64,000 bases of DNA from Escherichia coli (GCF_003334405.1 NZ_QOWM01000005.1); one strand, 5' to 3'; counted from the stretch's first letter, positions 45,024 to 46,033 are shown. Notes: generated from the letters alone by a model not told the origin. Numbers and translations: made by a program.

Positions 45024-45435
45024 AAGAAAACATCCCCTGAGAGTTTAATTTTCGTCAAGATGCGTGGCGGACAATCCCCTGCCAGCGAAACGTTATCTTC
45101 CTGCTCCAGGTTTGCGACAATTTGCTGCGTCGCAAAAAAGCAAACGTTTAGCTCCGCGCATACAAAACGGGTGGTAAAAAAAGCAAACGATTATCCGGCG
45201 ATCATAGCGGCTTTTTCAACCGAAGTTTGCTGCTTTTTTCTCTTTTATTGTCTTGACGATGAAAAACCAGGCAATTGATGCGCAAACGTTATCGTCGGTG
45301 CGCAAGATTGCAGCGTTATCGAGCCGTATACCGTTCAGGATTGCGATAAAAAATCGTCTGAGATGACAAAAATATTGCGGTTAAAAAGTATACTTTTACA
45401 CTGGCGAAGAAACGTCGGTGACATACAATTAAAGC

Positions 45436-45579
45436 ATCAACACCAACCGGAACCTCCACCACGTGCTCGAATGAGGTGTGTTGACGTCGGGGGAAACCCT
45501 CCTGTGTACCAGCGGGATAGAGAGAAAGACAAAGACCGGAAAACAAACTAAAGCGCCCTTGTGGCGCTTTAGTTTTGTT
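45436..45579 (+). ncRNA. ryjA: Candidate small RNA convergent with soxR (consistent with RyjA), ending at the hairpin/U-tract that overlaps the soxR stop
   Basis: Plus-strand intrinsic terminator at 45548-45579; TACAAT -10-like hexamer at 45424-45429 about 140 nt upstream; 5' end not determinable from sequence. Confidence 0.35.
45548..45579. terminator. Bidirectional intrinsic terminator overlapping soxR stop codon
   Basis: aaagcgcc-cttgt-ggcgcttt with ttttgtt downstream on plus strand and T-rich run on minus strand. Confidence 0.8.
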
Positions 45580-46033
45580 CATCTTCCAGCAAGCGTGCGC
45601 CGGTACCTTCTTCTCCTAAGCGGTCGCCCGGGTTACGCAACGGGCAATCACTGCGCGAAAGGCAGCCACAACCAATACATCCGTCCAGTTCGTCACGCAG
45701 CGCCACTAAGGTATGAATGCGCCGATCCAACTCTTCTCGCCATTGGGACGAAAGCTGTTTCCACTCTTTCGCACTTAACGTATGCCCTTCGGGCAACACG
45801 CCAAACGCTTCACCAATGGTCGCCAGCGGAATGCCAATACGCTGAGCAATTTTGATAATTGCAACATATCGCAACACATCACGTTTATATCGCCGCTGAT
45901 TGCCGCTGTTACGGATACTGGTAATCAACCCTTTACTTTCATAGAAATGCAGCGCCGATACCGCCACACCGCTGCGTTTCGCCACTTCGCCGGGGGTTAG
46001 CAGCGCTTTAATGCGGGGTAATTTCTTTTCCAT
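45569..46033 (-). CDS. soxR: MerR-family redox-sensing regulator SoxR ([2Fe-2S])
   Basis: 154-aa ORF; C-terminal cysteine cluster [12 protein letters not shown]. Confidence 0.95.

Follow-up and report, generated by a model that had tools for sequence, protein, structure and literature searches.

The plus-strand segment 45436–45576 of the Escherichia coli DNA analyzed here (a stretch of 64,000 nucleotides, hereafter the window) is RyjA, alias SraL, a known and annotated small RNA gene and not a discovery. We are confident that the locus is best explained as a RyjA gene with its own RpoS-type promoter and a strong terminator, whose product acts in trans by short pairing. RyjA is a 141-nt trans-acting regulatory RNA of the Enterobacteriaceae, transcribed from its own stationary-phase (RpoS) type promoter. 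Transcription stops at a strong Rho-independent terminator, the 3′ arm of which also contains the stop codon of the convergent gene soxR. In its folded form the RNA has a 5′ domain that a 7-bp helix closes, followed by two small hairpins in the center and by the terminator, and it acts through short imperfect base pairing with other mRNAs. Coordinates of all features are collected in Table 1.

Identity and Annotation of the RNA Gene

When the whole window was searched against Rfam, 45436–45576 on the plus strand matched RF01408, “sraL Hfq binding RNA,” at 153.3 bits (gathering score 39; E = 1.1e-34). The match covers model positions 1–142 of 142 and is not truncated. Positions 45330–45600 show 100% identity with E. 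coli K-12 MG1655, the record of which lists the ncRNA ryjA (b4459) at 4277926–4278066, with a length of 141 nt and an 8-nt overlap with soxR (4277469–4277933). Because of this identity, ryjA corresponds exactly to 45436–45576 of the window. A preliminary description of the same DNA had proposed a RyjA-like plus-strand sRNA of about 140 nt at this place, and the RNA turns out to be RyjA itself, matched by RF01408 from end to end and annotated in K-12. The region assigned to it in that description, 45360–45580, does contain ryjA, but begins too early, taking in the promoter and 76 nt that do not belong to the RNA.

RyjA/SraL has been known since 2001, the year cited in PMC3753932 for its first detection in E. 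coli, and it has an Rfam family, a gene number in K-12 and, in Salmonella, two targets that have been validated. Compared with that described RNA (RF01408, b4459, Salmonella sraL), the sequence, the 141-nt length, the structure, the RpoS-type promoter, the terminator and the position convergent with soxR all match. Only the context differs from that of Salmonella and most other genera: Escherichia is without the divergent upstream gene encoding a glutathione S-transferase (GST)-like protein, and its soxR frame is two codons longer and extends into the hairpin. The stretch 45024–45600 was found in 5421 of 5426 complete E. coli genomes. In the PGAP annotation of these genomes soxR alone is placed under this stretch, and the RyjA sRNA is not listed.

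Rfam matches were also obtained elsewhere in the window. One, at 24660–24714 (+), is a full-length match to SECIS_2, the bacterial selenocysteine insertion element (87.1 bits; gathering score 70), and presumably lies within a gene for formate dehydrogenase. Seven others belong to naRNA4, the REP-derived “nucleoid-associated RNA,” and lie at 27183–27592 (−), 38128–38198 (−), and 285–365 (−), the first of these ranges comprising five tandem copies at intervals of about 113 nt.

Table 1. Features of the ghxP–ryjA–soxR region, in window coordinates. Negative positions are relative to the annotated RyjA start.
Feature	Position	Strand	Basis or remark
ghxP	43674-45023	-	ORF; start at 45023
Conserved upstream block, TGCGGTTAAAAAG; family consensus TTCGGCnAAAAA	45376-45388 (-60 to -48)	+	Cross-genus conservation
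-35-like element CTGGCG; 3/6 matches to TTGACA, 17-nt spacer	45401-45406	+	Cross-species conservation
-10 hexamer TACAAT (-12 to -7) and TAA discriminator (-6 to -4)	45424-45432	+	Cross-species conservation
ryjA/sraL sRNA gene, 141 nt	45436-45576	+	Rfam RF01408 and MG1655 identity
Helix 1, encloses the 5′ domain	45437-45443 with 45478-45484	+	Covariation
Invariant block AACCGGAACCUCC, sRNA nt 10-22	45445-45457	+	MAFFT alignment
Predicted tig-pairing segment CCACGUGCUCGA, sRNA nt 24-35	45459-45470	+	Local duplex search
Helix 5, GGG/CCC hairpin	45490-45499	+	Invariant; RNAalifold
Helix 6, 6-bp hairpin	45500-45517	+	Covariation; RNAalifold
U-rich stretch after minus-strand hairpin, GUUUGUUUUCC	45535-45544	-	Candidate soxR termination zone
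Rho-independent terminator hairpin, 13 bp (6 G-C pairs), 5-nt loop	45545-45575	+	Terminator scan, folding
U-rich tail TTTTGTT	45573-45579	+	Annotated RyjA 3′ end = 45576
ryjA 3′ end/soxR overlap, 8 nt	45569-45576	.	Stop codon, Asn codon and part of a Gln codon
soxR CDS, 154 aa, convergent with ryjA	45569-46033	-	ORF, annotation

Homologous Loci and Conserved Secondary Structure

One pattern scan of species-representative genomes, for which two conserved blocks of RyjA were used, yielded 43 homologous loci, essentially all of them from Enterobacteriaceae. The genera represented include Escherichia, Citrobacter, Salmonella, Klebsiella, Raoultella, Enterobacter, Leclercia, Lelliottia, Trabulsiella, and Pseudocitrobacter, among others. 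A convergent soxR lies within about 130 nt downstream in 41 of the 43; the exceptions are one locus (L043) in which it is about 500 nt away and another (L013) with none detected nearby. Two records carry labels from outside the family. JAEWQV010000038.1 (L021), a metagenome-assembled genome labeled “Bacillota bacterium,” holds an enterobacterial soxR–sraL locus identical to that of E. coli, and CACSKA010000007.1 (L023), labeled “Chryseobacterium sp. 18061,” likewise carries an enterobacterial soxR–sraL locus. Contamination or mislabelling of these public assemblies is likely.

The sRNA sequences were aligned with MAFFT, and the Rfam consensus structure was then mapped onto this independent alignment. 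With the structure in register, 95.6% of cells are paired, vs. 41–55% when the 3′ partners are slid by one to three columns. Compensatory changes affecting both sides of a pair occur in eight pairs (four in helix 1, three in helix 6, and one in helix 7, the terminator), and none of 500 shuffles attained the observed pairing, the compensatory-pair count or the covariation score. Helix 1 has such changes in four of its seven pairs, with 96.2% of cells paired, and helix 6, with its three compensatory pairs, reaches 97.8%. Helix 5 is invariant. Both helix 5 and helix 6 were predicted independently by RNAalifold.

Other parts of the structure fare differently. Helix 3 has zero compensatory support and 78.9% of cells paired, and RNAalifold prefers another pairing in part of the 5′ half, between the invariant blocks CCGG and CCUC/GAGG, that covariation neither supports nor excludes. 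The block AACCGGAACCUCC is invariant in all 43 aligned sequences, partly by construction, as the pattern used for the genome scan required it. Taken as a whole, the molecule has a minimum free energy that modestly beats those of shuffled sequences (z = −1.99; 5 of 200 shuffles as good).

Promoter and Upstream Block

The promoter was located from the annotated RyjA start together with conservation, by anchoring 44 loci from about 20 genera at that start. In the resulting upstream consensus, positions −35 to −28 read ctGGc.AA and positions −12 to −4 read tA.A.T plus TAa; written continuously, the −10 region is tA.A.TTAaag across the 44 loci. CTGGc.AA is kept at the −35 position in at least 60–90% of them. 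The corresponding elements in the window include the hexamer TACAAT at 45424–45429 and TAA at 45430–45432. A sigma-70 consensus scan reported no ryjA promoter, because the −35 element is degenerate.

A degenerate −35 has been described as typical of RpoS promoters (PMC3753932). Work in Salmonella has found SraL to be nearly absent in an rpoS mutant and a promoter fusion to be RpoS-dependent (Silva et al., 2013; PMC3753932), and RpoS occupies the sraL promoter there in chromatin immunoprecipitation (PMC3753932). Judged by its sequence, the conserved ryjA promoter matches the RpoS-type features described for sraL; RpoS dependence as such comes from the Salmonella work.

Further upstream, at −60 to −48, the block TTCGGCnAAAAA is conserved across genera (L002–L044), whatever gene stands upstream. 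It persists in Escherichia although the divergent GST-like neighbor is missing there; possible roles are those of an UP element or of a site for a regulator.

The ghxP–soxR Gap and Its Neighborhood

The gap between ghxP and soxR spans 45024–45568, which agrees with the 545 bp given earlier. The accompanying statement that the gap holds no credible plus-strand coding sequence also stands, as its open reading frames are not conserved across species. Mechanically, three can be read on the plus strand: one of 62 codons (45363–45551), one of 72 codons (45060–45278) and one of 26 codons from the ATG at 45471. The 72-codon frame was rejected, being frame-shifted in two Escherichia species and interrupted in Citrobacter; the other two are weighed in the Discussion.

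In most Enterobacteriaceae, a divergent gene for a GST-like protein of about 222 aa (MLTVHHLNQSRSQRV...) starts about 121 nt from the sraL start (e.g., L012:1683–3182); its Salmonella representative is STM4267. Escherichia and two Citrobacter loci (L003 and L019) are without this gene and have ghxP directly upstream, at about 400–445 nt. That the E. coli gap is the relic of a GST pseudogene was considered and rejected, tblastn having returned nothing better than E = 3.7. With the GST-like gene missing and no detectable relic of it, the E. coli gap is therefore the 5′ region of ghxP joined to the sraL promoter. The only shared DNA block found was one of 36 nt (45277–45312), which is 92% conserved with the region upstream of ghxP in Citrobacter amalonaticus. 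Sites of the form GCAAACGNTW occur only four times in the 64-kb window, and three of them cluster within 150 bp upstream of ghxP, at 45140–45291 (+); we take these to resemble PurR operator half-sites.

The Terminator and Its Overlap With soxR

Folded alone, the plus-strand hairpin at the end of ryjA has a free energy of −20.5 kcal/mol (z = −7.4), a stability that 0 of 200 dinucleotide shuffles equaled. Its core stem is formed by aaagcgcc (45550–45557) and the return arm ggcgcttt (45563–45570), which enclose the loop cttgt (45558–45562). A hairpin followed by ttttgtt had been placed at 45548–45579 in the preliminary description; both features are present, with coordinates that were off by two or three bases. 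The overlap with the soxR stop codon claimed there is real, in that the stop (45569–45571, tta on the plus strand) lies within the 3′ arm of the hairpin.

The hairpin is nearly invariant in 43 species, with a single compensatory change, from U-A to G-C, in Pseudocitrobacter. The tail is less uniform: in Escherichia it is shorter, interrupted, and also encodes residues of SoxR, whereas most other genera have six to seven uninterrupted T. A simple terminator scan of the 1.3-kb region returned two terminator-like sites vs. 1.8 expected from shuffles. Because this count is about that of shuffled sequence, the hairpin owes its significance to its own stability and to its conservation across 44 loci rather than to the scan.

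The RNA of the minus strand folds into the same hairpin (−24.0 kcal/mol, z = −5.9), followed by GUUUGUUUUCC. A-rich and U-rich tracts flank the shared hairpin on both sides, and a U-rich tract follows it on each strand (UUUUGUU on the plus strand, GUUUGUUUUCC on the minus strand). The consensus terminator scan reported only the plus-strand site, on account of its tail rule. Since the hairpin is nearly symmetric and folds on the minus strand, it can plausibly terminate soxR as well.

The position of the soxR stop relative to the hairpin varies among the 44 loci. In 10 loci (those of Escherichia, of some Citrobacter and a few more) it falls within the 3′ arm; in 19 it is in the U-tract or directly next to it, and in 8 it follows the U-tract by 2–30 nt. 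In another 6 loci, including those of Salmonella and Enterobacter cloacae and some with REP-like insertions, the stop is >30 nt past the U-tract, and in the remaining locus soxR is absent nearby. Neither the sRNA nor its hairpin differs between these classes. Because they stay the same wherever soxR stops, we infer from the sequence comparison that the hairpin belongs first to the sRNA. In the 29 loci in which the stop lies in or against the hairpin, nothing else is available as a soxR terminator, and so the hairpin very likely doubles as one. In E. coli it would then also end soxR transcripts arriving from the opposite side, as the folding of the minus strand suggests.

The soxR frame of Escherichia has two more codons, ending in …EDEQN, and its TAA stop is within the stem. 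The protein there has 154 aa, vs. about 151–152 aa in most other genera of the set. The extra SoxR codons and the stop lie in the U-tract and hairpin arm of the sRNA, so that RNA structure and protein constrain the same bases. On the comparative evidence, the overlap of ryjA with the soxR reading frame appears to be a lineage-specific accident and not a conserved requirement. In Lelliottia and Enterobacter, REP-like GC-rich palindromes (e.g., GCCGGGTGGCGCTGCGCTTACCCGGCC) stand between the sraL terminator and the soxR stop; these insertions, at L008:1500–1700, L020:1094–1200, and L007:880–972, separate sraL and soxR by 50–130 nt.

Expression, Hfq, and Targets

SraL/RyjA is described as an RNA of ~140 nt whose expression is induced as cells enter stationary phase. 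In E. coli, the full-length RyjA transcript is polyadenylated and accumulates in a pcnB mutant (PMC5389530). SraL decays faster in Salmonella hfq mutants, and a Salmonella Hfq co-immunoprecipitation data set (OD 2) has zero reads for sraL. With no reads there, direct Hfq binding rests on the Rfam name and on the stability effects in hfq mutants.

Two targets are documented in Salmonella. SraL represses the mRNA of tig (trigger factor) by pairing just upstream of its ribosome-binding site; this 7 + 3 bp interaction involves the 5′ part of the sRNA, and both gel shifts and compensatory mutations made in the chromosome have confirmed it. SraL is also described as pairing with the rho leader, where it prevents premature Rho-dependent termination.

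For E. coli, a local duplex search paired the segment CCACGUGCUCGA with positions −30 to −18 of K-12 tig in a 7 + 3 bp duplex of −16.4 kcal/mol, the third-ranked local match. The site is just upstream of the tig Shine-Dalgarno sequence, at about −12, and the predicted duplex fits the published description of the Salmonella SraL–tig geometry. This shared geometry makes the mechanism plausible in E. coli, and on the strength of the predicted duplex we suggest that it could operate there too. The local window search of the E. coli rho leader singled out no convincing RyjA site. When RyjA was folded with the tig and rho leaders of E. coli without a window restriction, the outcome was giant duplexes no better than those of shuffled sRNA, which did as well in 70 of 300 and 274 of 300 cases, respectively. 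From the Salmonella findings, we infer that RyjA regulates the same targets (tig and rho) in E. coli.

Discussion

Two readings would deny the locus an independent RNA gene of the kind described above. In the first, the hairpin is merely the terminator of soxR, with no plus-strand gene of its own, and the supposed sRNA is either conserved intergenic sequence or pervasive antisense transcription. The location of the hairpin at the soxR stop favors this, as does the PGAP annotation of thousands of genomes, which has only soxR at the locus. Set against it are the conservation of about 110 nt lying 5′ of the hairpin, with compensatory changes in helices 1 and 6, the conserved promoter at a fixed distance, and the retention of the element where soxR is displaced or absent; moreover, both the transcript and a function of RyjA have already been published. 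Covariation, promoter conservation and published expression together refute the absence of an independent gene, and we give that account next to no credence. According to the other, the region encodes a small protein, either from the 62-codon frame or from the 26-codon frame inside the sRNA, and the RNA is an mRNA or a dual-function RNA. Both frames do exist mechanically, and the 26-codon one lies wholly within the RyjA transcript. The 62-codon frame, however, starts 73 nt upstream of the RyjA transcription start, its ATG is lost in E. albertii, and it meets in-frame stops in a sister Escherichia species and in Citrobacter. For the shorter frame, only 18 of 44 loci have the ATG at 45471, the others reading CTG, ACG, or CCG, and no Shine-Dalgarno sequence precedes it (GUGCUCGAAUG); downstream, single-base indels shift the frame, leaving it frame-shifted or truncated in many loci. 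Substitutions in RyjA preserve helices and are not codon-patterned. Cross-species comparison thus effectively refutes a small protein, which we regard as very improbable.

A different proposal accepts the RNA gene and makes RyjA also, or instead, a cis-acting partner of soxR, such that RpoS-driven transcription of ryjA through a bidirectional terminator changes the level or 3′ end of soxR mRNA, or the reverse. The possible routes are collision of convergent polymerases, or pairing of the complementary 3′ ends followed by cleavage by RNase III. Several observations fit: the hairpin is stable on both strands, the soxR stop is inside it or abuts the U-tract in 29 of 44 loci, and bidirectional terminators between convergent genes are a described and common class in E. 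coli (bioRxiv 10.1101/2022.10.23.513370). The overlap is not conserved, however, and in Salmonella, where SraL was characterized, the stop lies beyond the U-tract by >30 nt; in one locus without a nearby soxR, the sRNA and hairpin are unchanged. Pairing between the 3′ ends of the two RNAs is probably disfavored, because the overlapping segment of each is a tight hairpin. On the favoring side there is also the genome-reduced E. coli DGF-298, for which the overlap has already been remarked on: removal of ryjA shortened soxR by eight codons, and the SoxS regulon is constitutively active (PMC11481515). The truncated SoxR and many further deletions confound that result, however, and the authors, who discount the truncation, favor oxidative stress (PMC11481515). 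We found no test of ryjA–soxR coupling in 12 papers mentioning both genes, and no entry for ryjA, soxR, or sraL in the TERMITe Term-seq supplements. On balance we think a cis-acting role unlikely, and as read from the aligned loci the comparative pattern speaks against coupling as a conserved function. A more specific claim concerns the lineages, Escherichia among them, whose soxR stop falls within the hairpin or next to it: there the hairpin would be a genuine bidirectional terminator, and stationary-phase, RpoS-driven ryjA transcription would measurably alter the 3′-end formation or stability of soxR mRNA. This, too, we consider unlikely.

Two described systems invite comparison with the ryjA–soxR arrangement. 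GadY is an RpoS-dependent sRNA encoded opposite the 3′ end of the transcription-factor gene gadX; its documented function is to pair with the gadX 3′ UTR, with which it shares an overlap of tens of nucleotides. The likeness, an RpoS-dependent sRNA at the 3′ end of a regulator gene, gives the coupling idea a precedent. Unlike GadY, RyjA overlaps the annotated soxR by 8 nt, an overlap not conserved across genera, and its documented targets (tig and rho) are trans-encoded. The bidirectional terminators of Ju et al. (2019), as described in bioRxiv 10.1101/2022.10.23.513370, resemble ryjA/soxR in consisting of a convergent pair with one hairpin-forming overlap that folds on both strands. In that description, the class is said to be unlike intrinsic terminators, whereas the ryjA hairpin is a textbook intrinsic terminator on the plus strand.

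The overlap also has consequences for genetics. C-terminal SoxR substitutions such as G143D have been reported as activating, and C-terminal truncations may give constitutive soxR alleles. The SoxR truncation in DGF-298 may deserve a second look. Because the genes overlap, ryjA cannot be cleanly deleted in E. coli without touching either the C-terminus of SoxR or the terminator, and soxR damage forced in this way confounds strain-engineering results such as those with DGF-298.

More generally, the locus shows that a genuine sRNA can be recognized by a reader working from sequence alone, by way of a terminator and an empty gap between genes, and that the standard PGAP annotation misses ryjA in thousands of E. 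coli genomes. If coupling of ryjA and soxR were true, it would link the general stress response to the superoxide sensor, and RNA structure would constrain the last residues of SoxR, whose codons are part of the terminator.
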